A stretch of 38,436 bases of DNA from a virus. Lineage: Duplodnaviria > Heunggongvirae > Uroviricota > Caudoviricetes. This document shows, piece by piece, positions 1 through 27,009 of this stretch. Under the pieces are notes generated by a model. The model was not told the DNA's origin, made no database searches, and worked only from the letters and a program-made list of their open reading frames with translations. The stretch lies in IMG/VR virus record IMGVR_UViG_2939147180_000005, positions 1 to 38,436 of that record. One strand, given 5' to 3'. The translations under genes and the position numbers were made by a program. Within the stretch, counting starts at the first letter, position 1. The number at the start of each line of letters is the position of its first letter.

Positions 1-158
1 ATGATGCAATCTGCGGGCATTGTCGTTAATGATGTTACTGTCACCTGGCGTAACGGGCACACAGCACTGCGCGATGCATTCTTCACAGTACCAAGTGGAT
101 CTATTGCCGCTCTGGTTGGGGTAAACGGTTCCGGAAAATCGACGTTGTTTAAAGCGAT
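1..158 (+). pseudogene. sitB: 5' fragment (~52 codons) of an ABC-transporter ATP-binding protein, SitB/MntB-like metal-uptake family, truncated by IS1
   Basis: ATG at 1; translation [54 protein letters not shown] carries Walker [10 protein letters not shown]; frame runs into the IS1 terminal repeat at 159 and stops. Symbol is a recollection. Confidence 0.5.
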
Positions 159-173
159 GGTAATGACTCCAAC

Positions 174-677
174 TTATTGATAGTGTTTTATGTTCAGATA
201 ATGCCCGATGACTTTGTCATGCAGCTCCACCGATTTTGAGAACGACAGCGACTTCCGTCCCAGCCGTGCCAGGTGCTGCCTCAGATTCAGGTTATGCCGC
301 TCAATTCGCTGCGTATATCGCTTGCTGATTACGTGCAGCTTTCCCTTCAGGCGGGATTCATACAGCGGCCAGCCATCCGTCATCCATATCACCACGTCAA
401 AGGGTGACAGCAGGCTCATAAGACGCCCCAGCGTCGCCATAGTGCGCTCACCGAATACGTGCGCAACAACCGTCTTCCGGAGACTGTCATACGCGTAAAA
501 CAGCCAGCGCTGGCGCGATTTAGCCCCGACATAGCCCCACTGTTCGTCCATTTCCGCGCAGACGATGACGTCACTGCCCGGCTGTATGCGCGAGGTTACC
601 GACTGCGGCCTGAGTTTTTTAAGTGACGTAAAATCGTGTTGAGGCCAACGCCCATAATGCGGGCAGTTGCCCGGCAT
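174..677 (-). CDS. insB: IS1 transposase InsB (made as InsAB' by -1 frameshift)
   Basis: 167-aa ORF ending ...[19 protein letters not shown], recognisable as IS1 InsB; overlaps the insA 3' end in the -1 frame. Confidence 0.9.
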
Positions 678-871
678 CCAACGCCATTCATGGCCATATC
701 AATGATTTTCTGGTGCGTACCGGGTTGAGAAGCGGTGTAAGTGAACTGCAGTTGCCATGTTTTACGGCAGTGAGAGCAGAGATAGCGCTGATGTCCGGCG
801 GTGCTTTTGCCGTTACGCACCACCCCGTCAGTAGCTGAACAGGAGGGACAGCTGATAGAAACAGAAGCCAC
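596..871 (-). CDS. insA: IS1 InsA regulator / transposase N-terminal part
   Basis: 91-aa [43 protein letters not shown]... (zinc finger + HTH), recognisable as IS1 InsA. Confidence 0.9.
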
Positions 872-939
872 TGGAGCACCTCAAAAACACCATCATACAC
901 TAAATCAGTAAGTTGGCAGCATCACCAAAACTCCTGACA

Positions 940-966
940 ACAAAAAACCCACCGCGAAGTGGGTTT
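940..966 (-). terminator. Candidate rho-independent terminator for the leftward late transcript
   Basis: Minus strand reads AACCCAC-TTCGCG-GTGGGTT hairpin followed by TTTTTTGT (plus-strand A-run at 941-947). Confidence 0.45.
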
Positions 967-1086
967 CAGGCGACATAATAGTAGATATAGCGATTACGAG
1001 GCCACGCAATGCTTTTCTCCAGGAGCATCATCGATTTAATTAAAGACACCATCACATCTCTGTAACAGAGTGTACGTAATTAACAA

Positions 1087-1320
1087 CTACACACACTGCT
1101 CCTGAAAATACTGGTCATCCAGTGCAAAGATCACTGCTTCAAATTCATCGCGCTCAATCAATACCGGATGAGTGGCTAAATATTCATTTATCTCTGTCAG
1201 AGATAAAGGCAAAGGCACCCCAGCCATTCCAGCATAACGTCGGGCACGGGATATTACCGAATAGGCGTACAACAACTCCTTAAGCACCGGGTCTATTTCT
1301 GGTTCCGGTATCGGTGGCAA
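1087..1320 (-). CDS. Hypothetical small protein, last ORF of the truncated tail module
   Basis: 77-aa ORF downstream of the putative tail chaperone; no motif recognised; call is positional. Confidence 0.35.
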   Translation of the reverse strand: MPPIPEPEIDPVLKELLYAYSVISRARRYAGMAGVPLPLSLTEINEYLATHPVLIERDEFEAVIFALDDQYFQEQCV

Positions 1321-1394
1321 CCTGAGTTTTTCTCGCTTCCATCTTGCCTTTTCCCCCCTTTCTCCCCCGAACTCCGATAACCACCGCTGGGCAG

Positions 1395-1856
1395 CTATGG
1401 CTTTTTTATCGTATCCTGCTTCTGCTGCTCTTTACCCTGGGCGATGCTGGCTGCTTCTGCAAGGATCTGCCAGTACAACTCTGGATTCTGCTTAAGCAGC
1501 GCGATCCCTCGTTCTGCCGTATATTCCAGTGCAACCTCAACACCATTAACCAGTTCACCAACCCCTTTCCAGTCTTTCAGCAGATAACGAGCGGCATTAT
1601 CAATGAGTAAATCATCAACAGAATCCACCTCGGAAACCTTTGAAATATCAAACTCCTTCGTTCCGACGTGCAAACTGGCATCCATTTTCTCAATGTGGCG
1701 ACGGATTAATGCATTACGGGAGCGATACTGATCGTTATCGCTGCTTGCCACCAACAGTTTTAACCCGTCTACAGGTTTTAAGTCCTTCATTGGCGTAAAC
1801 CAGCGTTCTCCACCAATGATAATTTTCTGATTAAGAATAAACATCCATAACCTCAT
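1395..1856 (-). CDS. Putative tail assembly chaperone
   Basis: 153-aa acidic ORF immediately downstream of the major tail gene; positional inference only. Confidence 0.4.
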   Translation of the reverse strand: MRLWMFILNQKIIIGGERWFTPMKDLKPVDGLKLLVASSDNDQYRSRNALIRRHIEKMDASLHVGTKEFDISKVSEVDSVDDLLIDNAARYLLKDWKGVGELVNGVEVALEYTAERGIALLKQNPELYWQILAEAASIAQGKEQQKQDTIKKP

Positions 1857-1917
1857 TCAATGCGTCCCCCTGTAGGGCAGTACCACAGGAGGAATAACGG
1901 AAAATCAACTAATCGCC

Positions 1918-2868
1918 TCAGCACTGGCTTTTGCGATCACGGCAGCCGGGGAGGCTTTTTTTTCTGGTTATCGTAGGTGCTTCATCTGCTGCGGTAATGC
2001 TCAATTGAACCTGGATAATGTCGGTATTACCCCCATCAGGCCATTCACCTGACACCTGAACCTTCGGGAAACTGAAAGTGTATGCCCCCTCTCCATTCGA
2101 AAGCGTGAAGCTGAACGGAACTGTTTCTCCAGTCAGTGTTTTACTCCAGATTTCCCACGCGGCTTTAGACCATGAAAGCGTCACCGTACCGGACGGTGTA
2201 AAAGTAGTCGGAATATTTGCTCCTGCATAAGGCGAGCCAGTCCCGATACAACGCTGTGTCTGGAGTTTGTTATCGAACTGAATATCAAAACTGTCGATAC
2301 AAAAACCGTTACCTCCGGCAACACCATTCAGGCTTACTGCTGAAACCTCCTTAAACGAATAACGTAGCTTTCCTGCACTATCCACAGGTTCGCCTTTGAT
2401 AAAATTCGTATCATCGGCCTTTGATTCCCAGTCCAGTCCGGCAAAGGTTACGGTCGCTGTAATATCGCCGTCGTTAGGGATCTGCATTTTCCATGAGCCA
2501 ACCTGCGCTCCTCTGACGACAGAGGCAATTCCGACATCGGACGCATAGGTCGCCAGAGAAAATGTTATTCGCTCATTCCCCATTGTCAGAGAATCGCCTG
2601 ACCATTCCGCGCCGAAACAGGATGCAAGAAAATCATCATGTTGACCCCAGCGAAATTTGGTACCAACATCACCGCCGACATCCACAGTGCCAGGCGTCGC
2701 CCCCTGAGCCATCCGGGAGCCACCAATCTCATTATTTTCGCTTTTATTCTGGGTGGGTTTTACTCCCCAGCTTGTGCGTTTTAATAAACTCCAGTCACCA
2801 CTTGCTGGCGTAGTGCCTGCAACCGTCTCCCGGATAAATGCCGAGATAACCTTTGCACCTGAACTCAC
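1918..2868 (-). CDS. Putative major tail (tube) protein
   Basis: 316-aa Gly/Thr/Ser-rich ORF; GTG start at 2868 with AGGAGG 6 nt upstream; position after the head-tail joining genes. Confidence 0.45.
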   Translation of the reverse strand: MSSGAKVISAFIRETVAGTTPASGDWSLLKRTSWGVKPTQNKSENNEIGGSRMAQGATPGTVDVGGDVGTKFRWGQHDDFLASCFGAEWSGDSLTMGNERITFSLATYASDVGIASVVRGAQVGSWKMQIPNDGDITATVTFAGLDWESKADDTNFIKGEPVDSAGKLRYSFKEVSAVSLNGVAGGNGFCIDSFDIQFDNKLQTQRCIGTGSPYAGANIPTTFTPSGTVTLSWSKAAWEIWSKTLTGETVPFSFTLSNGEGAYTFSFPKVQVSGEWPDGGNTDIIQVQLSITAADEAPTITRKKSLPGCRDRKSQC

Positions 2869-2894
2869 AGGAGCCTCCTATGTCATTAATTGCG

Positions 2895-3287
2895 CTAGAG
2901 CGCGCGATATGGAATTTGAAGATTAAGCTGGAACCAGCCATTCTTTTCGCCAACGGCTATTGAGGAAACAACCTGGTAACTGAGACGATCGTCATCCTGA
3001 AACTCAAACAGTTCCCGCAATTTATCGGCTGTCTCAGTAATGAGTTTTGAACCAGAACCTGCGGGGACAAATAACTGAATAATGATTATCCCCGTGCGAT
3101 AAACAACCGGCCCCGCGCCAATTTCATTAACTCCAGCCTGCCCGGGAATATTACTTAAACGCGCCCAGATTAACTTACCGGAAGGATCGAACGTTGGCCC
3201 GTTCGGATACAATACGTCTTTTCCATCAATAACCGTCTGTGCCGTCATTCTGGAAATGACCGTATTTCTGATTTCAGTAAACGTCAT
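2895..3287 (-). CDS. Putative tail completion / tail terminator protein
   Basis: 130-aa ORF in the head-tail joining block; positional inference. Confidence 0.4.
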   Translation of the reverse strand: MTFTEIRNTVISRMTAQTVIDGKDVLYPNGPTFDPSGKLIWARLSNIPGQAGVNEIGAGPVVYRTGIIIIQLFVPAGSGSKLITETADKLRELFEFQDDDRLSYQVVSSIAVGEKNGWFQLNLQIPYRAL

Positions 3288-3664
3288 TTGTAAGCCTGTA
3301 AAACACCATTAAAAGCGTTGGCATACACGCCAGTTGGCGCTTGTTGTGAATGACCGTTTTCAAGAGCCTCTGCATAAGGAAGGTTATTCTGGATATAAAT
3401 AATTCCGTAATTTGCAGCTTTCGAAATAACTCCGATCCCACGCTGAACCGCAATCGTACCGTTCGGATCCACGTTATCAGATATACCAAAATCGGGATAC
3501 TGTAACGACACCATGTTGTTATTTCTGAAACGCCCGGTATCAACCGGAGCAGCAATATCAATAGCAGTAAGAATCTGAATAGCGATGTAGCGAATTTTCA
3601 GCCCCACATCTTCCTCAATCATCCCGGCAAATATTGACGGTTCGATATCCCATGCCTTTGCCAT
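3284..3664 (-). CDS. Putative head-tail joining protein (HK97 gp10-like)
   Basis: 126-aa ORF overlapping its neighbours by 4 nt (translational coupling); family assignment from memory, unverified. Confidence 0.4.
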   Translation of the reverse strand: MAKAWDIEPSIFAGMIEEDVGLKIRYIAIQILTAIDIAAPVDTGRFRNNNMVSLQYPDFGISDNVDPNGTIAVQRGIGVISKAANYGIIYIQNNLPYAEALENGHSQQAPTGVYANAFNGVLQAYK

Positions 3665-4051
3665 TTACGCTCTCCTTAACTGGATTGAGTAAACTGATGC
3701 GGAAGGATCTACACTCGCTGTAATTACCTCGTATCGTTGCAACTGCCTTGATACAGAATCATAAATCTCAATAATATGACCGACAGCGGGTTTATCCGTA
3801 ACCTCGCATACCAGAGCAGTTAATTTAAGGTCACCATGCAAAATATTAATCCCATCAATTCTGCCCAGCTTATAACGCGTCAACACGCCTCGCCCGGTAT
3901 AGGTTGCTGTGGATTCACCGCCAGTTTCAGTCACAGGATCCCAGTTCCGGTACGTAACGTAAGAACCAGAAAAATCACTCACGACGTCTGCTAAATCCTC
4001 ATCAAAAGCAGCGGCAACCTCTGACTGAATCTCTTCACGAACCCCCATCAT
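3665..4051 (-). CDS. Putative head-tail adaptor / head closure protein
   Basis: 128-aa ORF, tightly packed in the late operon. Confidence 0.4.
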   Translation of the reverse strand: MMGVREEIQSEVAAAFDEDLADVVSDFSGSYVTYRNWDPVTETGGESTATYTGRGVLTRYKLGRIDGINILHGDLKLTALVCEVTDKPAVGHIIEIYDSVSRQLQRYEVITASVDPSASVYSIQLRRA

Positions 4052-4443
4052 CCCCCCCTCACAACCCTGACTTGTGAGCGACTAAGTCCGTACGGTTTCA
4101 GCAGTGCTATCGCAAGCTGTAAATCGGGTTCAAGCAATGCAGTGCTGTTTGCTGGCAATTCAGCAAATGATTTCGATACACTGACCCCGTCAGCCGACAC
4201 GGCTTTACTGATAATAACGCCTGAATCATTTTTCTGCTGAAACAACTTACCGACAGAGGCAATTCTGGCTGCATATGCTCCCGCAAGTTTTACCTCTTCC
4301 GGAATACGGGATGGGTTAATTTTCAGGCTGAAGCCATTAAGCCAGGCATTAGCCATTAAAACAGCTTTATTTTTAGCGTTCTCACTCGTCCAGGCGTTCC
4401 CAAACGCATTATCAACGTCATCACAGGTCACGTAAGTGATCAT
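4048..4443 (-). CDS. Putative head-tail connector protein
   Basis: 131-aa ORF, 4-nt overlap with the downstream gene. Confidence 0.4.
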   Translation of the reverse strand: MITYVTCDDVDNAFGNAWTSENAKNKAVLMANAWLNGFSLKINPSRIPEEVKLAGAYAARIASVGKLFQQKNDSGVIISKAVSADGVSVSKSFAELPANSTALLEPDLQLAIALLKPYGLSRSQVRVVRGG

Positions 4444-4446
4444 GTG

Positions 4447-4671
4447 TTACTCCTGAGTTTTCCAGCCCAGAGCCTTCCAGTTGTCAACTTCATCAGGATG
4501 AACATTAGCGATAGTTGGTGCGCCGGGAAACATCTGATAATCGGTCACCATAACCACTAACTCAATTTGCGTTTTTTGTGGCTCCTGAATTTGCTCCACA
4601 TTTTGCTCCACCACTGCATTTTTTTGCGCGGCTTCACGCTGTGCTCTTTGCTCTTTAGTTAATCCGGCCAT
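4447..4671 (-). CDS. Hypothetical small head-associated protein
   Basis: 74-aa ORF directly downstream of the capsid gene. Confidence 0.35.
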   Translation of the reverse strand: MAGLTKEQRAQREAAQKNAVVEQNVEQIQEPQKTQIELVVMVTDYQMFPGAPTIANVHPDEVDNWKALGWKTQE

Positions 4672-4713
4672 ATACCCTCCATTAAAAATGGGGCCGAAGC
4701 CCCATTTGGATGT

Positions 4714-5856
4714 TTAACCAAGAATCAGACAACCATGTGCCGGTTTCACTGACGAAACACCCCATGCCAGTCCAACTTCATAGCGCACCTGGCGATACTG
4801 ACGATACAGTGCAATCTGGAACGTAATCCCTGAAATCGGGTCCGTAACATTCATTACATCATCAGCATTATCGCCACCTTCCGGCATTGCCGGAGTACGG
4901 GATGCCAGCAGAAACGCGTTGCGATCAAACGCCATATTTGCAGTAAAAGAGCCAACAACTGTGATTGCAGTATCATCGGCCAGATCCTGACGCAGTCCCG
5001 GCGCTGCAAGAGTAATCAGATTGCTGGTCGCTGCTGCCACAACATACTGATTCGGATCGCCAGCGAACGTAACAATCTGACCTGCAGAAATACTCCCCGA
5101 ACCAGTATCAATGGAAATAAGAACATCGCCTTCTTTTTTCTCGCCATTCACGAGATAACCTGTTGCAGCAACCTTTGGCGCTCGTTTTACACCTGCCGAA
5201 CTGTGAATATTGAATCCCTCCAGACGCCCCAACACGCCCTCACGCAGTAGCTGTTCAGTGCCGGATTCATTCACTTTAAACAATACAGACTGTTTTCCGC
5301 GCAAATTAGCAATGGCAGTGGAACCAAGCACCATCTGCAGATCTGTTGTCGGTGCGCCGTTATCCTCCAGAACCTGACGAGCCAGAGCAGCATCAGAAAG
5401 ATCATCTTTAACACCAAACGGCGTTGTCCCTGCGGTTCCCACGGCGCGGGAAGCACCGAAATACAACGCACCAAGATCAGCCTCAACCTCGTTTGCAAGG
5501 GCGCGAAAAGCCTGCTTGAACTGATCAGCCAGAATGGTGTTGTAAGTCCCTGAAGGGCCAAGAGCCAGTTGTTCTTCACCATTCCATTTAACCGGCGCCA
5601 TTTTGGATTTAGTAATTTTTACATCAACAGTGCCAATATTTTGATCACCGGTATTCGGAGCTGACGGCCCCGGTACGATATCTTCGGTTTTCGCCTCAGG
5701 CGCAACTGACGCGGTTACCGTCTGATCTTTTGCTGCGGCGTCAGCTTTTGCGTTTTTTGCTACCGCAGGGATAAAACCTACCTGCTCACGGGATACAACA
5801 TCCAGGGCGGTGTAAATAGTCGGGATCAACCCGGTCAGGGTATTTCCAGCCATAAT
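4714..5856 (-). CDS. Major capsid (coat) protein, P22-coat-like
   Basis: Start re-set to ATG at 5856 (MAGNTLTGLIP...) with AAGGAA RBS; ~380 aa; follows the scaffold gene. Confidence 0.65.
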   Translation of the reverse strand: MMAGNTLTGLIPTIYTALDVVSREQVGFIPAVAKNAKADAAAKDQTVTASVAPEAKTEDIVPGPSAPNTGDQNIGTVDVKITKSKMAPVKWNGEEQLALGPSGTYNTILADQFKQAFRALANEVEADLGALYFGASRAVGTAGTTPFGVKDDLSDAALARQVLEDNGAPTTDLQMVLGSTAIANLRGKQSVLFKVNESGTEQLLREGVLGRLEGFNIHSSAGVKRAPKVAATGYLVNGEKKEGDVLISIDTGSGSISAGQIVTFAGDPNQYVVAAATSNLITLAAPGLRQDLADDTAITVVGSFTANMAFDRNAFLLASRTPAMPEGGDNADDVMNVTDPISGITFQIALYRQYRQVRYEVGLAWGVSSVKPAHGCLILG

Positions 5857-5951
5857 TAAATATTCCTTAAAAATTTGCGTAATTGTGAATAGATGGAGTA
5901 ATGAGCTATCCAGCCCTGACACCAGCTCCCATCCGGAAGCTGACAAATGTG

Positions 5952-6716
5952 TTAATCAACAATTGTGATACCGTCTTTCAATGCGTTTTGCTTACCTGCA
6001 ACATCCAGTGCATCAAAAGCAGAGCGTTTCATCGTTTTCTGACCAATATCATGCTGTGTCGGACGGGAGCCGCCGCCATTGTTGCCACTGGCTTTCAGGA
6101 TGTAGTCTTTCTGAGGGTAATTTTCGACGAGGAACTCCAGCGCCTCATCAAACTGCGCCAGTTCGCCAGGCTTCGCGCGGGAATAAATTTTGTTGCCGGA
6201 AGCGTCATAAGCAACGATCTTCCCTTCTTCCACTTTGAATGCCTGCCCGAAGCGGGCTTGTAATAAATCTGCCGGGATCGCAATTTTATCGGCAATATAT
6301 TTTGAACCCGCAAAACTACCGCCAATCATAGAATCGTAAAGCTGCGTCTCCAGCATCTGAGAGCGTTGCTTTTCTTCATCTAATTGCTGCTGAAAATTTT
6401 TCGTAATTTCTGCCTTAACCTGGTCAACCTGTCCCGCACCGATCAGCTTTTTCTGGTCGATTTTTGACAGCATTTCCAGTGCCTCAATCGCCTTCTTCGG
6501 GTCTTCGATAGCGGCAAACTTAGCCAGTTTTTCCTCTGCAGCTTCTTTAGCCAGGCGATGATTTTTTGCCTCGCCATTAAGCTCTGTAATTTTTTTTGTC
6601 GCCAGCGGTGCATCGAAGCCGATTTCTTTACCATCGTCGTGCACATAGACTGGCAGGCCAGCAGTATCAATTTCTGCGTATTGTTTTCCGTTAATCTCGA
6701 CCGTTTTCAGTTTCAT
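5952..6716 (-). CDS. Putative scaffolding protein
   Basis: Charged, coiled-coil-like composition (…AEEKLAKFAAIEDPKKAIEALEMLSKIDQ…QQQLDEEKQRSQMLETQL…); sits between head morphogenesis and capsid genes; start at MKLKTVEINGK chosen, upstream GTG also possible. Confidence 0.5.
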   Translation of the reverse strand: MKLKTVEINGKQYAEIDTAGLPVYVHDDGKEIGFDAPLATKKITELNGEAKNHRLAKEAAEEKLAKFAAIEDPKKAIEALEMLSKIDQKKLIGAGQVDQVKAEITKNFQQQLDEEKQRSQMLETQLYDSMIGGSFAGSKYIADKIAIPADLLQARFGQAFKVEEGKIVAYDASGNKIYSRAKPGELAQFDEALEFLVENYPQKDYILKASGNNGGGSRPTQHDIGQKTMKRSAFDALDVAGKQNALKDGITIVD

Positions 6717-6820
6717 ATTAGTACCTGGTTTAAGTCTTCCGACAGTTGCGCTGCTCACCATCCGGATCGCAGCAATAAAAAAGGCCACCCGAAGGTAGCC
6801 TGTTGTAATAAAGGATTTAT

Positions 6821-7936
6821 TTAAATCCCTGCTTTTCTGAATGCCTGTGCATCACGCTCTCGGAGTTGCTTCAGTGTCAGCCATTCGCCTTTATCGGTGT
6901 AAAATTCATCTGGCGACATACCGCCATCCCGAATCGGCTTTGCCCGGGTTTCCCCCACAATCTTTTTTTGTCTGGTGTAAGGCTGGCGCAAAAACCATTC
7001 CCTGTAGGTTGTATCTCCGGCCACCACGCCATCCATGCTGGCCCGCTCAGCCGGGGAAATATCACGAACATCAATACCCAGTTCCTTCGCTGATTTCAGA
7101 ATGAACGTTTCCGTTGAGCGACAGCAGAAATGAATTTTCCCCGGCCCCTGTAAATAAGGCACGCTGTGACCTACAGGTTTATTATCCAGCGTATATTTGA
7201 GGCGATCCCTGATTCGACATTGTGGCGTAGTACGATTATCAAGCGTTGATAACCATTGCTTACCCTTAATCAAATCATTATTCGCGCTGGCAAAACTCTC
7301 ACGGGCAGTAGCAGCAAGATGTCCAACCGCTGTTTTTGCAATGCTGGCCGCATTAGCCCGACTCATCTGCAATGCACCATCCTGAAATCCCTTACTGACA
7401 TGTCCCCGAATTTTTCTTGCGATCTGCTCATTGGTATCCCCCAACAAAAAACCCTGACGCACCGTATTTGTTATGCGTCTGAGCCGATCCGCCTCAAGAT
7501 CTGAGGCCCACTCACTGAGCAGTCGTCCCTGGAATGGTCGCGCCATTGCAGCAGCATAAAGTGCATCAGGTGAGATACCAACCAGAGGATGAACATCAGC
7601 AACAAAATCAGGTAGCAGAGAATCAAACAGACTTAACTGATAACCAGCCTCATAAACTGCCAGCTCGTTCAGCTCTCCGGAGAGACTGGTAAACATGCTG
7701 TTAATAGCAGCGCGGTTAACCTCTCTGACACTCGCCAGAAGTGACTCCAGGCGCGTAACGGTGAAACTACTTGGATCGAGGCTGTCCAGTGCCACCAACA
7801 GGCGAGATGTAAGCTCCGCATCGCTGACATTCAGTGTTTTCACCATTCTGGCAGCCACACCAGTGCTATAGCGAGATATCCAGACTGCATGAGCAATTGA
7901 TTCATCACGCAGCCGTTCATTCACGGTTTGCATCAT
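6821..7936 (-). CDS. Head morphogenesis protein (Mu F / SPP1 gp7-like minor head protein)
   Basis: 371-aa ORF immediately after the portal gene; family from memory. Confidence 0.6.
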   Translation of the reverse strand: MMQTVNERLRDESIAHAVWISRYSTGVAARMVKTLNVSDAELTSRLLVALDSLDPSSFTVTRLESLLASVREVNRAAINSMFTSLSGELNELAVYEAGYQLSLFDSLLPDFVADVHPLVGISPDALYAAAMARPFQGRLLSEWASDLEADRLRRITNTVRQGFLLGDTNEQIARKIRGHVSKGFQDGALQMSRANAASIAKTAVGHLAATARESFASANNDLIKGKQWLSTLDNRTTPQCRIRDRLKYTLDNKPVGHSVPYLQGPGKIHFCCRSTETFILKSAKELGIDVRDISPAERASMDGVVAGDTTYREWFLRQPYTRQKKIVGETRAKPIRDGGMSPDEFYTDKGEWLTLKQLRERDAQAFRKAGI

Positions 7937-9323
7937 TGATTTCCATCAGCATTACACTCTGATTTTTTAATTCATCGATCACTTCCTCTGGACGGGAATC
8001 CTGATCGATAAATTTCAACGCCTGCAACACCCGAACCGCATCAATCTGACGTATATCACCGCCCTGACGCAATGACTGAACAGCCAGCGCGGAGGATGAG
8101 TCAAACACCTGGGCAGATACATCCAGTTCAGTGCGCACATCCACATTGCCGCCGCAACTCTCTCCGATCCATTCCGCCATTATCTGGAGAATATTATCGA
8201 GGGCATCTTCGAGGGAGTTCGCCATTGTATAAAGCGGCGAGTTTTCCTGCATCCGCTCTTCATTAGTCTGATCAACAGATTTGGTGGATGTATTTTCAGC
8301 CCGCAGAAGTTTAGCGCCGGCATGACGCATTTGATTTTCCAGCTTCTCCAGTGATGTTTCGCCAGATTCTATCGCTGCCCCACTATGTTCAACATATTCG
8401 AGGCCATTTTTTGTTCTGTCCTCAAAAATCGTAGCGGTGGATGCACCAACCGTCAGTTCTTCATTCCTGTCCAGCCCGTAGGCCACCAGCAATGGGACGC
8501 GGGCAACATGAAGAATATTGTCCTGCTCGCTCTGGCTTTGCCAGTGCTTGATATTCAGCAAGCCAAGATTAAGCAATGGCGGTGTACCACGCATAAACCC
8601 TGTTTTCTTCGTATACAGTGTTACCAGAGGAATATCATCACGGCTGGTATTCCATGACTCGTGAAGCGTCCAGACAGATTCGCCATTAGTACCTTCGCTG
8701 CGTCGATAAATTTCAACGCAACGGGGCATAATATGGCGGATCTGCTCCACCTTCTTCTGCCCGAAATCATCACCATCAACAATGATGACCTCTTTTATAC
8801 GCAAATCAGTAAGAACAACTTTCCCTTTTTCAACTTTCGATTTCCATCCAATAACCTGGCGTGGATTCAGCATCGTAACGTATGGGCGACCACCAGCCGC
8901 ATTTTCATCGGCTTTTGTCCGGATCTCCTTCATATCCGTTCGTGGATAGTCCACCAGCGCATGTGCCACACCATACTGAAATGCGAGGCTGAAAAATTGC
9001 TGCGCCCACACATCCAGTCGGCTCCCCTCCATGTCGATATTTTCTGCATATTCCCTGATTTTTTCCGGCGTTTCCTCACTCAATACTGTCGGCTCTGCAA
9101 ATATGCGTCCAATATTTTGCTTAATGCTTTCTTCATACACAGGAAGTAGCGTAGCCACAGACAGGCGTTTTTTATAAGCGTCTTCATCTTCGTTAGGCCA
9201 TTTTGGGAGATAATTTTCCCCCTGCCTGCGCATTTCAAGCGTACCGCCCATCAGTGCGTCGTTAATATCCCACGCCTCCAGCATATCGTTATAGTCGAGG
9301 TTGGGTGTTGATATATCAGCCAT
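7917..9323 (-). CDS. Portal protein
   Basis: 468-aa ORF with ATG at 9323, directly downstream of TerL (stop/start 3 nt apart). Confidence 0.65.
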   Translation of the reverse strand: MADISTPNLDYNDMLEAWDINDALMGGTLEMRRQGENYLPKWPNEDEDAYKKRLSVATLLPVYEESIKQNIGRIFAEPTVLSEETPEKIREYAENIDMEGSRLDVWAQQFFSLAFQYGVAHALVDYPRTDMKEIRTKADENAAGGRPYVTMLNPRQVIGWKSKVEKGKVVLTDLRIKEVIIVDGDDFGQKKVEQIRHIMPRCVEIYRRSEGTNGESVWTLHESWNTSRDDIPLVTLYTKKTGFMRGTPPLLNLGLLNIKHWQSQSEQDNILHVARVPLLVAYGLDRNEELTVGASTATIFEDRTKNGLEYVEHSGAAIESGETSLEKLENQMRHAGAKLLRAENTSTKSVDQTNEERMQENSPLYTMANSLEDALDNILQIMAEWIGESCGGNVDVRTELDVSAQVFDSSSALAVQSLRQGGDIRQIDAVRVLQALKFIDQDSRPEEVIDELKNQSVMLMEINDANRE

Positions 9324-9325
9324 AA

Positions 9326-10636
9326 TTAAATCCGAAGTGATGTGACTCTTCCGGTCGGTTTGACAATAGGGAATTGCTTAACGATGAAATAACCTCCGGC
9401 ATCATTCGGGTGATCATTGCCAGATTTTTTATCAGGCTCCCCCTTCTCATCCCAGACCTGTTGCTCCAGAGATTCGGCATATAACGGGCAACGCTTCACA
9501 TTAACTTTATAGCGACGCTCACCATTGGCATTGCAGAACATTGCATTCATTGAGTTAACGCGATCTTTTACTGGCGGGTTCGAGCTGTTCACCACAACGT
9601 TAAAACCAGCCTGCTTAAGCTGGGCTATATCCGTCGTACTTGCGTTACTTGATTTTCTGGAATCCCCGGAAGCATCTGGATAAATATAAATTTCCCTCAC
9701 TTTCCGGTAATCATTCCCATCATACAGCCAGAAGCGTTCTTTAATGATGCGGATCATATCCGGCGTATCGTAGGCATTGATGATTTCAGTTACCGCACAT
9801 GGAAGCCCCAAACGCAGCACATGGACGATTCCCGCCATCTTTCCAACGTTAAAATCCATCCCAATATAAATCGACTCCCCTGGCTGCTCCACTTCTTCGC
9901 AATTATTCAGTTTCCGGTCAAACTGATGGTAAACAGTACCACTTGTCAGGTTAGTAAACTGTCCTCGCAGATAGGCTTTAATCAGCTCTGGAGGGTATGA
10001 TTCAAGAAGCGAAGGAATGTAATCTGCTGGCAGGTTCTTTTCATTATCGAAAGTAGATGCCTGCACCAGACCATACAGTGAGGCCAGCTCTGTTTTTTCA
10101 CGCACGGCTTTAACAAACTGCTCGTAGACAAATTTGAATCCTTCCGGCGTGGTTGTAACGTCAATACCGTTGCGAAGTCCATCAATCTTATAACGCATAC
10201 GCGCAATTATCTTGCGCCACGCCGTTCTGGCTTTTTCCTTCGGCAAAATGTCCAGTTCATCCACCAACGCATTACCAATTTTGAAACCGACGATCGTTTG
10301 TGGCTTCTCCATCGATCTGCAGATAGTGGTTCCCCGATACTGGCGTCCGTAATAAAAGTGAACCTCTTTATTTCCCTCATTAATTTTTACGTTCAATCCC
10401 CAGTCAGCAGCAACTTCTTCCACTGTAGGGTAAAAAATATCGCGAATTTGGGGATACGTTGGCGCAAAATATCCCTGATTTATACCTGGATGCTCCCAAA
10501 TCCCCTTGCATATGCCGCCACACCCAACCCATGTTTTGCCCGAGCCAAAACCAGCAATATAGGCTTTAAATTTATGGGGCATTGAAAGAAATCGCGCCTG
10601 AGGCACATTAAGCGTCGGAGAGATCATCTTCATCAC
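9326..10636 (-). CDS. Terminase large subunit
   Basis: 436-aa ORF with N-terminal Walker A (…YIAGFGSGKTWVG…) and a C-terminal acidic nuclease-like region. Confidence 0.8.
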   Translation of the reverse strand: MMKMISPTLNVPQARFLSMPHKFKAYIAGFGSGKTWVGCGGICKGIWEHPGINQGYFAPTYPQIRDIFYPTVEEVAADWGLNVKINEGNKEVHFYYGRQYRGTTICRSMEKPQTIVGFKIGNALVDELDILPKEKARTAWRKIIARMRYKIDGLRNGIDVTTTPEGFKFVYEQFVKAVREKTELASLYGLVQASTFDNEKNLPADYIPSLLESYPPELIKAYLRGQFTNLTSGTVYHQFDRKLNNCEEVEQPGESIYIGMDFNVGKMAGIVHVLRLGLPCAVTEIINAYDTPDMIRIIKERFWLYDGNDYRKVREIYIYPDASGDSRKSSNASTTDIAQLKQAGFNVVVNSSNPPVKDRVNSMNAMFCNANGERRYKVNVKRCPLYAESLEQQVWDEKGEPDKKSGNDHPNDAGGYFIVKQFPIVKPTGRVTSLRI

Positions 10637-11702
10637 TCCTTACTCTGGCATCAACCACATTAATATTGATCGCCACAGGCTGGGGATGTTCATTATCTTC
10701 CACCGTTTCGATCTCTTTGCGCAGCTTCTGGTTTTCCATTCTGCGCCGTTCAATTTCCAGTTCCTGTAGCCGCTTATCTGCACATAAAGCCCCACCAGCA
10801 GCAAGCAAACGCAACAATTCACGCCGGGCGGCAGCCTTATCCTCCAGCAGGATCTCAACACCAAATTTTCCGAGCTTTGCCCCTGCATATAATTGCCGCG
10901 CTTCCCCATCAAGCAGAGTGGTATCAGCCATATAAAGCTGCCCCGTTCCCTCACCGCAGCACTTCGGGCAGTCCGGATTGGGTATGGCGTTATCAACAAA
11001 GCCAAGGCCACCATATTCCGGCTCGGGTTTGCCATCTCTGGAGGCCTGCGCCGCTGCCTTATCGAATTCTGCTATATCGCGCCACTGGTAGTGATGATTC
11101 TCGCCCCAGCAATAACGGCAGTTAACACGGCGAAATTGTGCCAACTGATTGGGGTCGGCCTGGACAATGGCCATCAACTGACTCACCAGTAAATCCAGGT
11201 CTGCGGTATAGCGTTTCTGGTACTGATTGCGGAAGTAGCTGATAGCACGAAAAACCTTAGGATTTCTTAGGAGCTGGCTGGCGGTTACGTAGGCCGCATT
11301 CCCCTCTGACTCGTATCCTGCCAGGCGATATGCCTCAACGAGTTTTTTCCCCTGGGCAACCAGCATTGCGAATTTCGCCTGCTGGTCAGAAACGCCGAAT
11401 TCATCGGGACAGAACGAAATTTCTTCCGCATCGCCCTCATTCAGGTACGCATCGGATACTGGCTTTTTTTCCTGAGATTTTCCGTTCCGCTTTTGTGCAG
11501 TCTGCGCAGATTTTTTCTGCGCACTTTTTTGCGCAGTTTTGCGCATTTCTGTCTGCGCATTTTTCGGAGGTTTTTTGATGTAACGACGGGCTGTTGCGTA
11601 ATTCAGTCCCCTTGCTTCACACCATGCCACCGGAGATATACCGGAGCGGGTGTATTCAGCAATATACTCCTGCTGCAACGCCCCCCAGTCCGGTCTGCTC
11701 AT
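10608..11702 (-). CDS. Putative terminase small subunit / DNA-packaging protein
   Basis: 364-aa ORF directly upstream of TerL: N-terminal HTH-like segment, basic AQK-repeat linker, C-terminal Cys cluster (CRYC…CPKCC). Confidence 0.5.
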   Translation of the reverse strand: MSRPDWGALQQEYIAEYTRSGISPVAWCEARGLNYATARRYIKKPPKNAQTEMRKTAQKSAQKKSAQTAQKRNGKSQEKKPVSDAYLNEGDAEEISFCPDEFGVSDQQAKFAMLVAQGKKLVEAYRLAGYESEGNAAYVTASQLLRNPKVFRAISYFRNQYQKRYTADLDLLVSQLMAIVQADPNQLAQFRRVNCRYCWGENHHYQWRDIAEFDKAAAQASRDGKPEPEYGGLGFVDNAIPNPDCPKCCGEGTGQLYMADTTLLDGEARQLYAGAKLGKFGVEILLEDKAAARRELLRLLAAGGALCADKRLQELEIERRRMENQKLRKEIETVEDNEHPQPVAININVVDARVRSDEDDLSDA

Positions 11703-11705
11703 CAG

Positions 11706-11957
11706 TTAGTCCTGATTTTTATCCACCCTGAGTAGTTCGCGCAGGGCAAAGGCATCCCCTTTTCTGGCAAGCTTAAACAATGCCGCCCGTAGCTCGGCTT
11801 CACCTTTCGCTCTGCCCTTACGGATGGACGCGTAAAAATTTGTCATTGCTTCCCGATTTTCTTTCAGTCGGTTCAGATCAACATCCAGAACGTCAGCGAT
11901 TTGTTGTGCAGTCATCCGGCACGCTGCCAGAGACTCGACTTTCGAATACGGAATCAT
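11706..11957 (-). CDS. Hypothetical small protein (possible DNA-binding); start may be the internal Met at 11915
   Basis: 83-aa ORF between the GT-like gene and TerS. Confidence 0.35.
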   Translation of the reverse strand: MIPYSKVESLAACRMTAQQIADVLDVDLNRLKENREAMTNFYASIRKGRAKGEAELRAALFKLARKGDAFALRELLRVDKNQD

Positions 11958-12825
11958 TTGTCACCCCCATTAATATGCAGGGTGTCTTCTTCCTGTATTT
12001 TTCGTGAAGGATTTTTACTGCAGCGTTGTTCCAGGTGACCTGATGGTGAATGCGTTTATGGCTGGCGCCCATCAGTGAGATTTTTACGCACGACGGCGCA
12101 TACATGACGGAATAAAAACTTTTAACGTAGGTCCCGGAATCCAGATACAGCTCGGTCATTCCGCCGCTGTTTTTCTGCGTCTGTTTCTGCCCTAACTGGA
12201 CAGCACCGATCGTCATAAACAATTCACCACGGCGACCGAGATTCGTGTACGTATTCACATCCTCGTTAATGCGCCCCATGAATGAGAACGGTCGATCAAC
12301 CGAACAGATAAAGCTGTTCATTGCCTTGCGTTTCACCCACGAAGCATGGCCGCCATTGTCACCAAGAAAATCCCCGCCCTGCGACATAGCGATGGAAAGC
12401 GCGGGTATTGATTCGTAATACGCCAGCATTTCAGAAAGGATCGCATCCAGTTTCCTTATCGGGAAATAGGCCTGGTCATAGTTGCGATCCACCCGAAACT
12501 GGAACTCGTGATAATCATCATCGAGCTGAATGAAGTATTTACACCCGACCAGTTTTGCCAGGTCGAAACAGGCATTACGGGCGTAAAAAATTGAGCGGTG
12601 GTCACCAAAATTATCGGCTTCGTCAAAACGACTGGCAATATCGGCTTTGGAAAATACCAGCACCTGTTCACCAAATTCAGCCATGTACTGATGCCGTGTC
12701 TTATCTTCATCATCAACAACGATAAAAATTTTCCCGGTATAGCCAGCACGACGCAACGTCCGGTAAGTCAGAACTTTGTCCGGTCGCCCGTGAGTCAGAA
12801 TAAAGGCGCAAAAATCATCACACAT
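11893..12825 (-). CDS. DxD-motif protein, possible GT-A-like nucleotide-sugar transferase
   Basis: …KIFIVVDDEDKT… and …KYFIQLDDDYHEF… resemble GT-A nucleotide-binding and DxD motifs; start overlaps the ParB-like gene stop by 8 nt. Confidence 0.4.
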   Translation of the reverse strand: MCDDFCAFILTHGRPDKVLTYRTLRRAGYTGKIFIVVDDEDKTRHQYMAEFGEQVLVFSKADIASRFDEADNFGDHRSIFYARNACFDLAKLVGCKYFIQLDDDYHEFQFRVDRNYDQAYFPIRKLDAILSEMLAYYESIPALSIAMSQGGDFLGDNGGHASWVKRKAMNSFICSVDRPFSFMGRINEDVNTYTNLGRRGELFMTIGAVQLGQKQTQKNSGGMTELYLDSGTYVKSFYSVMYAPSCVKISLMGASHKRIHHQVTWNNAAVKILHEKYRKKTPCILMGVTNDSVFESRVSGSVPDDCTTNR

Positions 12826-13606
12826 ATTCCTCCTCCCCGCTATGCATGATCGCCACCATGCGCTGCGTCATTCGGACAAATCCATTTTCAATAGCCTGCT
12901 GATAATCAATGATCACCAGCGCCGACTCCTCGAAAAGGCACTGAATTTCAGCGGGGGCATGAGCGTAATAGTCCGCAATTCTGCTGAAATTAAACACCGT
13001 GTGACGTTCTGCCGCACACAGGAGGAATTTCTCAATATCAGGATCAAGGGACGCCGAACGTATCCGGCTGATCAGCTCCTGAGTTTTCGTATCGTCATAC
13101 AGTTCACTGATATCCGGTTTACCGCCCGACGGCTCATAAACAGGCGTATCAATTTTCGTCGTATACGGCTCCTCCTTATTTCCTGTACCGGGCAAAACAT
13201 CCGTCAACAGTTCATCAATTTCTGTCGGGCCGAAGCCTGTCAGGGAGACATCAAAATCAGCATTGATTAGGTCCGACAGCTCCATCCGCAACAGATCTTC
13301 ATCCCAGCCAGCATTCATCGGTAGGCGATTATCTGCCAGGCGGTACGCCTTTTTCTGCTCATCCGTCAGGCCAGACAGAACAATGACCGGAACAGAATCC
13401 ATTTTGAGCATTTCAGCCGCCATAACACGACCGTGACCCGCAATAATTTCGCCCTTTTCGTCAATCAGCACCGGATTAGTCCAGCCGAATTGCTTAATAC
13501 TTTCTACCAGTTGTGCCACCTGCTCAGTACTGTGCGTCCTGGCGTTGTGCGCATACGGTGACAATTCTTGTAATGGGCGATAGACTATCTTTAATTTCTC
13601 GCTCAT
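12818..13606 (-). CDS. ParB-like nuclease domain protein
   Basis: N-terminal ParB/sulfiredoxin signature …FGWTNPVLIDEKGEIIAGHGRVMAA…; 262 aa with acidic C-terminal half. Confidence 0.7.
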   Translation of the reverse strand: MSEKLKIVYRPLQELSPYAHNARTHSTEQVAQLVESIKQFGWTNPVLIDEKGEIIAGHGRVMAAEMLKMDSVPVIVLSGLTDEQKKAYRLADNRLPMNAGWDEDLLRMELSDLINADFDVSLTGFGPTEIDELLTDVLPGTGNKEEPYTTKIDTPVYEPSGGKPDISELYDDTKTQELISRIRSASLDPDIEKFLLCAAERHTVFNFSRIADYYAHAPAEIQCLFEESALVIIDYQQAIENGFVRMTQRMVAIMHSGEEEYV

Positions 13607-13635
13607 ACAGCCTTGCTTTATGAATAAAACGCACC

Positions 13636-13672
13636 CCAGCAGCCAGTGCTACTGGGGCGGAGGTGTTGCTGG
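13636..13672 (-). terminator. Candidate intrinsic terminator downstream of trkG
   Basis: CCCCAG…CTGGGG hairpin followed on the minus strand by TGCGTTTTATTCAT. Confidence 0.35.
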
Positions 13673-13742
13673 TAAAGTTAGGTATTGGATCAATGAGTGA
13701 GTCAATATAATATTAAACTCACAATTATAAATCAGCCATATA

Positions 13743-15200
13743 TTAGGAGCGCCAAAAAAAACCTGAAAACAATATAATAACAGGATAAATTTCAAGGCGA
13801 CCAAGAATCATAGCTATGCACATTAAATATTTTGCAATGTCATTAAGCACTCCGAATGACGATGCAGTAGCCCCAAAACCTAATCCCATATTATTAATAC
13901 ATGCAGCCACTGTTGCAAATGATGTAAGAAAATCATATCCCATACCATTTAACACCAGTATAAAAAACACCGTGAAGAGAGTATAAAGAAAAAAGAAACT
14001 CCATACAGACCTCATTACACGATCTGTAACTATCTTCCCTCCTACATTTACACTCAACAACGCTCTGGGATGAGAAAGCTGATTTATCTCGTGTTTGCTT
14101 TGTTTGAAAAGTATAAGAAATCGAAGTGACTTAATTCCACCACAAGTTGAACCTATACATCCCCCAAAGAAACTTGACGACAGCAAAAACACTATCGTGT
14201 GCGTGGGCCAGTTTGCATAATCCTGCGTAGCTAAACCATTATCAGTGAGCATGGAGCTGGCAAGAAAAAACGAATGAATAAAACTTCCATGCAAGTCATA
14301 CATACCTATATGCCAGACCTGGAAAGAGGTAACAATGATCACCCCTAAGGCTATTAACAGAAAGAAACGAAGTTCAATATCTCTGATTAAAGGTTTTATC
14401 GTTTTCCTGCTAATAACAATATACCAAAGAGTGAAGTTGAAAGCCGATAGCAGGGAAAAAGAACCAGCCACCAGCTCAACCAAATAGTTATTAAAATATC
14501 CGATACTCTCGCTATGAGTTGAGAAACCACCAAGCGAAACTGTGGAAATCCCGTGACAAATAGCATCAAACAAAGGCATTCCTGCAAGTCTATAACAGAC
14601 AATACAAGCAATACCTAATAAAGAATAAGTTATCCACAGTGTCCGTGACGTATCGGCCAGGCGGGGAGTGAGTTTGTCATCCTTAAATGGCCCCGGCATT
14701 TCTGACTGATAAAGCTTTGCACCACCAATACCCAATAATGGCAATACAGCAACCGCCAGAACAATAACTCCTAAACCACCTATAAAATTTAACTGTGACC
14801 GATAGTACAAATATGCCCGAGGTAATGAACTAACATCATCAATTACAGTTGCTCCTGTTGTTGTTATTCCAGAAACCCCTTCAAACAGAGCATCAATGAA
14901 CGTTAAATTAAGTTCTGAGTCAATCCATAAAGGGAATGCACTAATAACAGAAAACAAAATCCAAAACATTACAATTATAATAAACCCATCACGGGTACGT
15001 AATTGAATGCCAGATTTCTTAGTTGTATACCACGCTCCGCCACCAATGCAAAAAAACATAACGAAAGTTATAAAGAAAACGAACAGGCTTTTTTCTTTAT
15101 AAAACAATGCTACAACCATTGGTGGCAACATTGAAAGACTATAGAGCCAAACCAGAAACCCACACATATGAGTAACAACTCTTACATGAGATGTATTCAT
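13743..15200 (-). CDS. trkG: TrkG, Trk-system K+ uptake protein (prophage moron)
   Basis: Translation from MNTSHVRVVTHMCGFLVWLYSL… matches remembered Rac TrkG; multi-pass membrane protein; AT-rich codon usage. Confidence 0.9.
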   Translation of the reverse strand: MNTSHVRVVTHMCGFLVWLYSLSMLPPMVVALFYKEKSLFVFFITFVMFFCIGGGAWYTTKKSGIQLRTRDGFIIIVMFWILFSVISAFPLWIDSELNLTFIDALFEGVSGITTTGATVIDDVSSLPRAYLYYRSQLNFIGGLGVIVLAVAVLPLLGIGGAKLYQSEMPGPFKDDKLTPRLADTSRTLWITYSLLGIACIVCYRLAGMPLFDAICHGISTVSLGGFSTHSESIGYFNNYLVELVAGSFSLLSAFNFTLWYIVISRKTIKPLIRDIELRFFLLIALGVIIVTSFQVWHIGMYDLHGSFIHSFFLASSMLTDNGLATQDYANWPTHTIVFLLSSSFFGGCIGSTCGGIKSLRFLILFKQSKHEINQLSHPRALLSVNVGGKIVTDRVMRSVWSFFFLYTLFTVFFILVLNGMGYDFLTSFATVAACINNMGLGFGATASSFGVLNDIAKYLMCIAMILGRLEIYPVIILFSGFFWRS

Positions 15201-15337
15201 ATCTAAATATTCTTTCAATTATAACCACCTTGCTGCAATATTATGATTATACTGTATAAAATTTAACTCCTCTTAGATCTTACTTCACTGTTCCTTATGA
15301 AACAATCATCAAAATGAATCATATTGTAGTTAAGATT

Positions 15338-15802
15338 TTACTTTAAACACTGTTCGGTTATGTATTGCTGAGCACCTTCAAGTTGGGCCTGCATCATTAC
15401 CAGTCGTTCCCGGAGGGTGAAATAATCCCGTTCAGCGGTGTCTGCCAGTCGGGGGGAGGCTGCATTATCCACGCCGGAGGCGGTGGTGGCTTCACGCACT
15501 GACTGACAGACTGCTTTGATGTGCAACCGACGACGACCAGCGGCAACATCATCACGCAGAGCATCATTTTCAGCTTTCGCATTAGCTAACTCCTTCGTGT
15601 ATTTTTCATCCAGTGCAGCAACATCACGCTGGCGCATCTGCATGTCAGTAATTGCCGCGTTCGCCAGCTTCAGTTCTCTGGCATTTTTGTCGCGCTGGGC
15701 TTTGTAGGTAATGGCGTTATCACGGTAATGATTAACAGCCCATGACAGGCAGACGATGATGCAGATAACCAGAGCGGAGATAATCGCGGTTACTCTGTTC
15801 AT
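15338..15802 (-). CDS. Rz-like i-spanin
   Basis: Start ATG overlaps the endolysin stop (ATGA); N-terminal TM helix then coiled-coil periplasmic domain. Confidence 0.75.
15397..15582 (-). CDS. Rz1-like o-spanin lipoprotein, embedded in Rz in the +1 frame
   Basis: [20 protein letters not shown] lipobox signal, then proline-rich PPPPPAW… mature region. Confidence 0.7.
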
Positions 15803-16296
15803 TGCTGACCCCACAAACAGATTTCACGCTCAATCTCACGACGAGTCATGAGACCTTTCCATTGCTTACCGCCAGCATATGTCCAGCGACGTAGCTGATC
15901 ACATGCGCCTTTGATATCGCCCTGGTTTATTTTGCGAAGAAGCGTCGATGTTCTGAAATTGCCAGCACCCACGTTGTAAACGAATGAGTAAAGAGCGCCG
16001 CGCGTTGTTTCCGGTATATCGACTTCGATGTACGGGTTAATTTGTCTGGCGACAGTGGCAAGGTCTTTATTCAAGAGTGCTTTGCATTCTGCTTTGGTAT
16101 ACGTTTTACCGAGCATGATGTCTTTTCCTGTATGCCCGTGACATACAGTCCATACACCAACAATATCTTTGTATGGTATGTAGCTGACACCTTCCAGACC
16201 ATCGTTACCACTTGGGCCAGTGATTAACACTGATGCTATAGCAATTGCTCCGCCACCAATAGCAGCAGCAACGGCTTTTCGTAATGATGGAGGCAT
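15799..16296 (-). CDS. SAR endolysin (T4-lysozyme-like muramidase, phage 21 R type)
   Basis: N-terminal Gly/Ala-rich signal-anchor-release segment [20 protein letters not shown] followed by a lysozyme-like domain; 1-nt overlap with the holin stop. Confidence 0.85.
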
Positions 16297-16511
16297 TATT
16301 CACCTCTCGCAGCCTTGCGCTTATCTTCTTTAATCTTGAAATAAAGGTTTGTCAGGTACGTCAGCAGGCCAAAAACCAGACTACCCAGCACACCGATTGC
16401 AGCCCACTGTGACGGAGTTACTCTATCGAGCAACTGTAAAAACCAGTAGCCAGCACTGCCTGCGGAGGTGCCATAGGCGACACCCGTTGTTAACTTATCC
16501 ATGGATTTCAT
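16296..16511 (-). CDS. Pinholin, phage 21 S-like class II holin with dual-start motif
   Basis: [31 protein letters not shown]…[32 protein letters not shown] matches remembered S21; two TM helices; Met1/Met4 dual start. Confidence 0.85.
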
Positions 16512-16892
16512 AACCCCCACCTCGCAGATGCGGGCGCTGTGTAATGGAAACAAAAAATGGCCACCAGCGGCCCGTAAAAAACACCCCGTCAAAAGCACCG
16601 GCATCCGCAGATGCCCTTTGCGTGGCGTTATTTGATGCGCGCCAGATGTGGCGCAAAGAAATGAAATAAGACTTATCGAAAATTAAGGTTAATTTGATGA
16701 TTTAAACCACTTCTGAAGCTTAGTAGTATGAACATGTCCCCAGAAGGGGGCCAATACTTATGATTCTTCATGGACTTTGTCCCGCGGCGTTAATCCGACG
16801 GCCGCGCTTTTTTTGCGCCATATTCATCGCTAACTTACATGGCATTGCCACACGGGCATTATCAGTGTCCGTGTTTCTTTTTTTAGGGTTCA

Positions 16893-16925
16893 GAATAAAA
16901 AAAACCGCCCGGTGGAGGCGGTAAA
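16893..16925 (-). terminator. Candidate intrinsic terminator between the tRNA cluster and the holin
   Basis: Minus strand reads CCGCC-TCCACCG-GGCGG followed by TTTTTTTTATT. Confidence 0.4.
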
Positions 16926-17197
16926 GGATGTATTTCCAGGTTTTGCTTAGTATATGATTAATCTCAATGTCATTTTTAGCGATGTTTACAACATCGGGAT
17001 GGCACATCACCGGCCCTGCCAGGAAATACAAAATCTCCACCGATAATGCACCATTCTGCTGCCGTAAAAAAATCAGCACTGAGGCTACACCTGGCCTCAA
17101 ATCATAGCCAGAGAACAGAATGCTTTTTCGAAACAACCTGCTCCCACGTAATAAAAATACGCCAGTGCTGCAATACAATAAGGCTTATTTCAAATGC

Positions 17198-17272
<75 letters not shown>

Positions 17273-17275
17273 ATA

Positions 17276-17351
<76 letters not shown>

Positions 17352-17569
17352 ACAGAACCGCCACCGAGGTATCGAATCTCACACCTACCACTTAAATGAT
17401 GGTCGGCTCTTCCCGATGAGCAGATGGCGGTGTTCCCTTAATGGGATAGCTGTATTCAGTAATCCGTTATTCGAATACACCATCGAAGGAACAAGCGCAT
17501 TATATACATTCACGATTCGTGTTATTAGCTAATTGCGCACAACACAGCTTCATTTAACGAAATGCCCCC

Positions 17570-17601: not shown

Positions 17602-17684
17602 CTGGTAAAGTTCATGCGCTTGGTTCGCCTCGCGATACAGCTTTGCGAAACATACCGGAATTGAAGCAATTTATGCGTAAAAAA

Positions 17685-26993: not shown

Positions 26994-27009
26994 AAGCCCT
27001 CCCCTGGAA

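Follow-up and report, generated by a model that had tools for sequence, protein, structure and literature searches.

The window analysed here, a 38,436-nt stretch of Caudoviricetes DNA (IMGVR_UViG_2939147180_000005), raises the question of how a single IS1 element came to stand between the beginning of a metal-transporter gene and the last genes of an interrupted phage late operon, and in what state this left the prophage. Comparison with an intact relative makes it highly probable that IS1 caused a deletion of 16,389 bp inside a Rac-type lambdoid prophage of Escherichia coli.

IS1 Element and Its Flanks

The element occupies positions 159-926 on the minus strand (768 bp) and is a complete, IS1A-like copy, as judged by its terminal repeats, its Pfam domains and the reconstructed InsAB' product. 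The imperfect terminal inverted repeats of about 23 bp (GGTGATGCTGCCAACTTACTGAT / GGTAATGACTCCAACTTATTGAT; IRR at 159-181 and IRL at 904-926, detected as repeat pair I1 with arms at 158-181 and 904-927) and the length of about 768 bp place it in the IS1 family; it differs by one mismatch from the IS1 of strain T28R, which is annotated as IS1A-like. The insA gene (596-871, minus strand, 91 aa) and the insB' frame (174-677, minus strand) are linked by the A6C motif of -1 frameshifting, TTAAAAAAC (622-614, minus strand; IS1 position 305), and the predicted InsAB' protein, reconstructed across this motif, is intact and 232 aa long. The Pfam matches on the element are Zn_ribbon_InsA, HTH_Tnp_IS1 and DDE_Tnp_IS1 (E = 6e-78).

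A simple IS1 insertion is expected to be bordered by a target-site duplication of 8-9 bp, and this copy has none. The sequence-only reading of the window had already claimed that the 9 bp on the two sides of IS1 differ, and indeed they do: the left flank is TAAAGCGAT (150-158), which continues as TATGGG... in the reference strain w264, and the right one is AAAACTCCT (927-935), which carries the Shine-Dalgarno sequence of the tape-measure gene (AGGAG, minus strand, 931-935), now left orphaned. The left flank originally quoted, AAAGCGATG, had taken in the first G of IS1, a one-base shift that does not affect the conclusion. On re-inspection of the flanks no identical direct repeat of 6-14 bp was found with 3 bp of slack allowed at each boundary, and the best agreement reached when the boundaries were shifted was 4/6 matches. 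As positive controls, the same script was run on IS1 copies in related loci, where it recovered a 9-bp duplication (TTCCTCTGT) around the IS1 inside the tape-measure gene of T28R and an 8-bp duplication (GTGGATTC) around that of PF9285. The duplication marks a simple insertion event and is no part of IS1 as such; that it is lacking here is the evidence that a deletion followed.

Remnant of sitB on the Left of IS1

The left side of the junction is formed by the 5' remnant of sitB (1-158, plus strand), comprising codons 1-52 and two further nucleotides and 100 % identical to the annotated beginning of sitB in w264 (L001 3454-3611). The breakpoint thus lies within codon 53, in agreement with the initial description of an ABC ATPase gene cut after approximately 52 codons. 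With 52 of the 275 sitB codons remaining, the only SitB motif retained is Walker A (GVNGSGKST), the Pfam ABC_tran match on the remnant covers residues 24-54, and neither sitC nor sitD is present in the window, so that a complete SitABCD transporter is not encoded there. The reading frame runs on into IS1 and yields a chimeric ORF of 59 aa (1-180, plus strand), which consists of SitB residues 1-52, a junction codon and six residues encoded by IS1 (...KAMVMTPTY, followed by the stop codon). As a separate observation, residue 27 of SitB (79-81) is Phe (DAFFTV), in place of the Ser (DASFTV) found in all other listed members of its protein cluster; in its DNA sequence w264 has the Phe27 allele as well.

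The exact chimera was found elsewhere on one contig, a Logan short-read assembly product from two samples (ERR1148556). Upstream of the chimera this contig carries ydbH, ldhA, hslJ, ydbJ, ydbK, ompN, uspF and sitA; it ends 28 nt into IS1, and hence covers the left junction without spanning the element. It bears on the condition under which the idea of lost tail genes was to be abandoned, namely tail genes standing just beyond the window: sitA, uspF, ompN and ydbK are found on the left side of the contig instead, and because the contig shows the sitA-uspF side beyond the sitB-IS1 junction, no tail genes lie just left of the window. The other members of the 90 % identity cluster of the chimera were considered as further IS1 fusions and rejected: they are ordinary pieces of SitB, cut off where a contig ends, and show the usual continuation ...KAIMGF.

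End of the Late Operon on the Right of IS1

The last intact genes of the late operon are a pair of tail assembly chaperone genes, gpG-like (ydaY) and gpT-like (1087-1856, minus strand), preceded by the tail tube gene (1918-2868, minus strand; Pfam Phage_tube_2, E = 6e-32), annotated in RefSeq as phage tail tube protein in relatives. Further upstream, PHROG and Pfam matches identify a tail terminator, a tail completion protein, a head closure protein and a head-tail adaptor. The ydaY ORF (1395-1856, with the stop codon at 1395) matches phrog_313, "tail assembly chaperone" (E = 4e-46 in the PHROG scan), while the gpT-like frame is open from 1434 to 1087, across the ydaY stop, and contains a 77-aa ORF (1087-1320). 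A canonical -1 slippery heptamer, A_AAA_AAG (1407-1401, minus strand), joins the two frames, and in the fused product the coverage of phrog_313 is extended from positions 13-149 to positions 36-246 of 258. Overlapping frames located between tube and tape measure and bearing a -1 heptamer are the hallmark of the lambda-like G/GT pair, which normally stands immediately before the tape-measure gene; by this arrangement the chaperone genes are recognizable as such a pair, and frameshifting between them is predicted. In RefSeq no relation between the two frames is indicated, one being annotated as YdaY and the other as a hypothetical protein.

Between the chaperone genes and the ribosome-binding site of the tape-measure gene lies a terminator-like GC hairpin with a T-run (944-967, minus strand). 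It is kept in intact relatives, but the z-score of its fold is only -1.45, and we regard it as a putative terminator; its position inside the late operon is unusual for a terminator. One more peculiarity of this region concerns the 3' end of the tail tube gene (about 1950-1965), where the coding strand reads A8 followed by GCCT, one nucleotide longer than the other alleles (A7+TGCT and A9+TT). This alters approximately the last 15 residues of the protein and is common to w264, where the gene is marked by PGAP as frameshifted; a genuine mutation and a sequencing error in the homopolymer are both conceivable.

Comparison with the Intact Relative w264

The annotated region of E. coli w264 (NZ_CP095088.1), 99.98-100 % identical to the window, served as the reference for the undeleted layout. 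Four blocks align: window 1-158 with L001 3454-3611 (100 %), 927-10969 with L001 20001-30043 (99.99 %), 10963-21087 with L001 31350-41474 (99.99 %), and 19830-38436 with L004 1-18607 (99.98 %). What is missing in comparison with w264 is L001 3612-20000, that is, 16,389 bp, the flanks of which are bounded by the two ends of one IS1. The right breakpoint is located 5 bp upstream of the tape-measure ATG (L001 19986-20012 compared with window 900-960), and therefore the tape-measure gene, which in w264 occupies L001 16762-19995 (3,234 nt), is wholly gone and only its Shine-Dalgarno sequence is kept.

In w264 the genes follow in the order ompN, uspF, sitA, sitB, sitC, sitD and then, on the opposite strand from the remnant of a tail-fibre-assembly gene onward, the tail fibres, lom, gpJ, tail assembly protein, C40 peptidase, minor tail protein L, tail protein, tape measure, a 66-aa hypothetical protein, ydaY and the tail tube. 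Beyond the tail tube stand the head-tail connector and head genes, the terminase genes, ynaK', trkG, the lysis genes, tRNA-Gly and tRNA-Thr, and the final stretch comprises hokD, early genes, recET, ralR, xisR, intR and ttcA. The genes lost from the window are accordingly the 3' part of sitB, sitC, sitD, the tail-fibre-assembly remnant, the tail fibre genes, lom, gpJ, I, K, L, M and the tape measure (the tail block from gpJ to tape measure being annotated in w264 under the names given above). The end-to-end alignment with w264, interrupted by the deleted block, reveals no tape-measure, tail-tip or fibre genes anywhere in the window. The earlier statement that the late operon stops after a putative tail chaperone and lacks all these genes is thereby borne out, its last genes being the tube gene and the chaperone pair.

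Both flanks of the window keep the order and orientation that they have in w264 around a single IS1, as is characteristic of an IS-mediated deletion and not of an inversion. The comparison with related genomes that had been proposed as a check therefore gives a clean 16,389-bp deletion with collinear flanks and, of the two variants originally suggested for the loss of the distal tail genes, an IS1-mediated deletion or a rearrangement, supports the former. As for w264, it carries in its small terminase gene an IS3-family element, at the point corresponding to 10963-10969, which is lacking in the window; the two lineages have thus decayed through different insertion-sequence events.

Identity of the Prophage and Origin of Its sit Genes

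By its gene content and order the window is recognizable as a Rac-type lambdoid prophage of E. coli integrated at ttcA. It ends with the stop codon of intR, and in w264 the next gene, adjoining intR, is ttcA; intR and xisR stand beside ttcA, and a ttcC remnant is present at the other end, the source strain being judged from its 99.98 % identical relative and from contig L003. The Rac markers recET, racC, kilR, sieB, ydaT, ydaV, trkG, ynaK, ydaY and ralR/RalA are present according to the collinear annotation of w264. The first three letters of the window are the ATG of sitB; beginning at this ATG and ending at the intR stop codon, it was evidently cut at gene boundaries, and the two att sites (the ttcC remnant and ttcA) fall just beyond its ends.

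The normal layout of such a prophage is ttcA-intR ... head genes, tail tube, G/GT chaperones, tape measure, M, L, K, I, J, lom, tail fibres, sitDCBA, ttcC/attR, uspF. In w264 the gap of 586 bp between uspF and sitA holds a short remnant of the TtcA N-terminus (MSQNQEISKKEQYNLNK, followed by a stop codon), and this stretch matches the 5' region of the ttcA gene beside intR, as expected of the ttcC/attR end. The location of the ttcC remnant between uspF and sitA places sitABCD inside the prophage, at its tail-fibre end, and, together with ttcA beside intR, it makes the deletion internal to the prophage. By this position sitABCD is the prophage's own moron, and the deletion appears to have taken away most of this moron along with the distal tail module. 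The part of the sequence-only reading that must be given up is, consequently, the fusion of the prophage to a separate metal-transporter locus: the sitABCD genes already adjoined the tail-fibre genes inside the ttcC boundary.

The presence of sit genes in lambdoid phages is well documented. They were found, with a Fur box upstream, on 70 % of sequenced lambda phages (19 in the collection) from infant gut E. coli (Mathieu et al., 2020, PMC6969025), and the 042p3 prophage of EAEC 042 carries sit as a moron (PMC2808357). In its passage on the sit island, a review citing Fisher et al. (2009) calls it unstable and notes insertion sequences, deletions and rearrangements in it (PMC7545054). A block comprising sitBCD, fibre genes and J is about 96 % identical in deposited phages, among them phage 21, ev017, ev207 and Perceval.

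The remaining cargo includes tRNA-Gly(tcc) and tRNA-Thr(tgt) (17198-17351), a hok/sok locus (19836-20011) and the RalR/RalA type I toxin-antitoxin system with its sRNA (36702-36880; Rfam RalA, 218 bits), all typical of Rac-type prophages. One further region harbors a gene for an 853-aa protein (20445-23006, minus strand), a degraded IS30 transposase (23366-24495) and a gene for a 534-aa protein (24690-26294, minus strand). The 853-aa protein looks like an Avs/STAND-type defence candidate, judging by its nSTAND1 NTPase domain (33.1 bits, cutoff 27.1) and a weak N-terminal match to the Mrr_cat nuclease; PADLOC gave no match for it, and neither Pfam nor PADLOC gave one for its 534-aa neighbour.

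Frequency of the Intact and Deleted States

When positions 1-2400 were compared by megablast with 5,426 complete E. coli genomes, the part to the right of IS1 (927-2400) was matched by many of them at 99.7-100 % identity, in genes annotated as "phage tail tube protein" and "YdaY". The region of the tape-measure start is uninterrupted in 1,042 of these genomes, and 2,343 of them have a sitB that continues unbroken through the breakpoint. The left junction, between sitB and IS1, had no matches among the 5,426 genomes, and the right junction was likewise absent from them; two records of T28R that seemed to match the latter were rejected, as each is two separate pieces joined around a different, simple insertion. 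The exact 30-mers of both junctions occur neither in GTDB representative genomes nor in JGI metagenome contigs.

Route of the Deletion

The most likely route, which we favor with some reservation, is the classical adjacent deletion. IS1 would first have inserted at one of the two sites, in sitB or upstream of the tape measure; it would then have transposed intramolecularly and replicatively into the other site, the intervening DNA being excised as a non-replicating circle; and one IS1 copy would have stayed in place, with unmatched flanks. IS1-mediated adjacent deletions are known from the classical gal/IS1 system of E. coli and are RecA-independent. As in that system, the insertion sequence is kept at the junction, the deletion starts from the exact end of the element, there is no duplication and the flanks are collinear; there is no mechanistic difference between the two, except that the event in the window is a natural one and took place in a prophage.

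The same final structure would result if two separate, equally oriented IS1 copies had inserted in sitB and immediately before the tape measure, each with its 9-bp duplication, and RecA-dependent recombination between them had then deleted the 16.4 kb and left a hybrid IS1. Such a history seems conceivable in a strain like w264, which is rich in IS1 (at least 40 match pieces) and whose ompN, at a distance of 3 kb, contains another copy with the same orientation; moreover, PMC7545054, where it discusses the sit island, ascribes its rearrangements to homologous recombination. On the other hand, the IS1 sequence bears no sign of hybrid origin, and no precursor with a single IS1 at either site, i.e., neither of the two single-insertion junctions, was found among the 5,426 complete E. 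coli genomes, the GTDB representatives and the JGI metagenome contigs. Besides, two-copy recombination requires three events and the adjacent deletion only two; for this reason of parsimony we prefer the adjacent deletion and consider recombination possible but rather unlikely. The product would be the same by either route.

Two other explanations do not involve a deletion at all. Two simple IS1 insertions could have been collapsed during assembly, with the 16.4 kb between them dropped or misplaced; a collapse across identical repeats of 768 bp would give exactly the junction pattern observed, and the independent support for the left junction comes only from the short-read contig mentioned above, which ends 28 nt into IS1 and does not span it. 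However, the window is contiguous across IS1, which is rare for short-read assemblers on a multicopy element and makes a long-read or finished assembly likely, and analogous IS1-bounded deletions without duplication are known in complete genomes, so that an artefact of this kind appears very improbable. Even less credit can be given to an IS1-mediated inversion or translocation that carried the distal tail genes and sitB'CD to another place in the chromosome. Our view is confined to one region of the genome, which leaves some room for this explanation, but after an inversion the two flanks would no longer agree in orientation, and the reference order and orientation of both flanks are the signature of a deletion; as the main reading, inversion or translocation was rejected on these grounds.

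Comparison with Known Rac Prophages and sit Morons

The cryptic prophage Rac of E. coli K-12 has the layout ttcA-intR ... trkG-ynaK-ydaY-tmpR-lomR::IS5-stfR ... ttcC. Like the window prophage, it has ttcA beside intR and a ttcC remnant beside uspF, and the markers in common are recET, kilR, sieB, ydaT, ydaV, trkG, ynaK, ydaY and RalR/RalA; the region from ydaY to the start of the tape measure is about 99 % identical in K-12 derivatives. In contrast to K-12 Rac, which lost them, the full head module and the proximal tail module are kept in the window, whereas the tape measure and all distal tail genes were lost by a different deletion, bounded by IS1. The window prophage also carried a sit moron, while K-12 is devoid of sit. 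As in other lambdoid coliphages (Fisher et al., 2009, as cited in the relevant passage of PMC7545054; PMC6969025; PMC2808357; phage 21 and ev017), this moron was located at the tail-fibre end, but here its only survivors are 52 codons of sitB and, outside the window, sitA, the presence of which follows from L003 and w264.

Deletions comparable to that in the window occurred in at least two related prophages. In GPEC1446 an IS1 (L005 9001-9768; identity 99.7 %) stands between a truncated gpM-like gene and the equivalent of window position 1259, and in HCP6S3_I1 an IS1 (L006 9001-9768; identity 94.4 %) stands between ydfK and the equivalent of position 1236, both without duplication. As in the window, a duplication-free IS1 abuts the chaperone genes, and the deletion has removed the tape measure or even the entire distal tail; unlike in the window, the breakpoints, the left partners and the IS1 variants are others, and because all three differ, the events must have been independent. 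Three independent duplication-free IS1 junctions (window 927 and the equivalents of 1236 and 1259) thus fall within 333 bp. It is nevertheless very doubtful that the chaperone/tape-measure boundary of Rac-type prophages is a preferred endpoint of IS1-driven deletions. The search behind these junctions could detect IS1 only near this region and on the same strand, and we did not adopt a hot spot, n = 3 being indistinguishable from chance. If the preference were true, it could come from a hot spot of IS1 targeting, or from selection by the host in favor of prophages that have no tail but still carry heads, lysis genes, recET and defence cargo.

Expected Consequences for the Prophage and Its Host

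Since none of the genes from the tape measure through the tail fibre survives the deletion, the prophage should be unable to build a tail and hence would produce no infectious particles; the initial description of it as defective is therefore upheld, the tail-less state being deduced from gene loss. The integrase, excisionase, replication, lysis, terminase and head genes are retained, as would be attL and attR, which lie outside the window; judging from this gene set, excision, lysis and production of tail-less heads are still possible. As to the host, the Sit transporter is most probably non-functional, which would leave sitA as an orphan gene of a binding protein and the cell incapable of Sit-dependent uptake of manganese and iron.

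These considerations are of practical value for annotation: the prophage should be labelled as defective (tail-less), and the strain should be scored as sit-negative at this locus, as sitA and the beginning of sitB could otherwise be counted as a virulence-gene match. The IS1-driven decay of a Rac-type prophage with a sit moron is an ordinary event of a kind already known. Without raising a new biological question, it adds one more documented case to those of insertion-sequence-driven prophage decay and of sit island instability.
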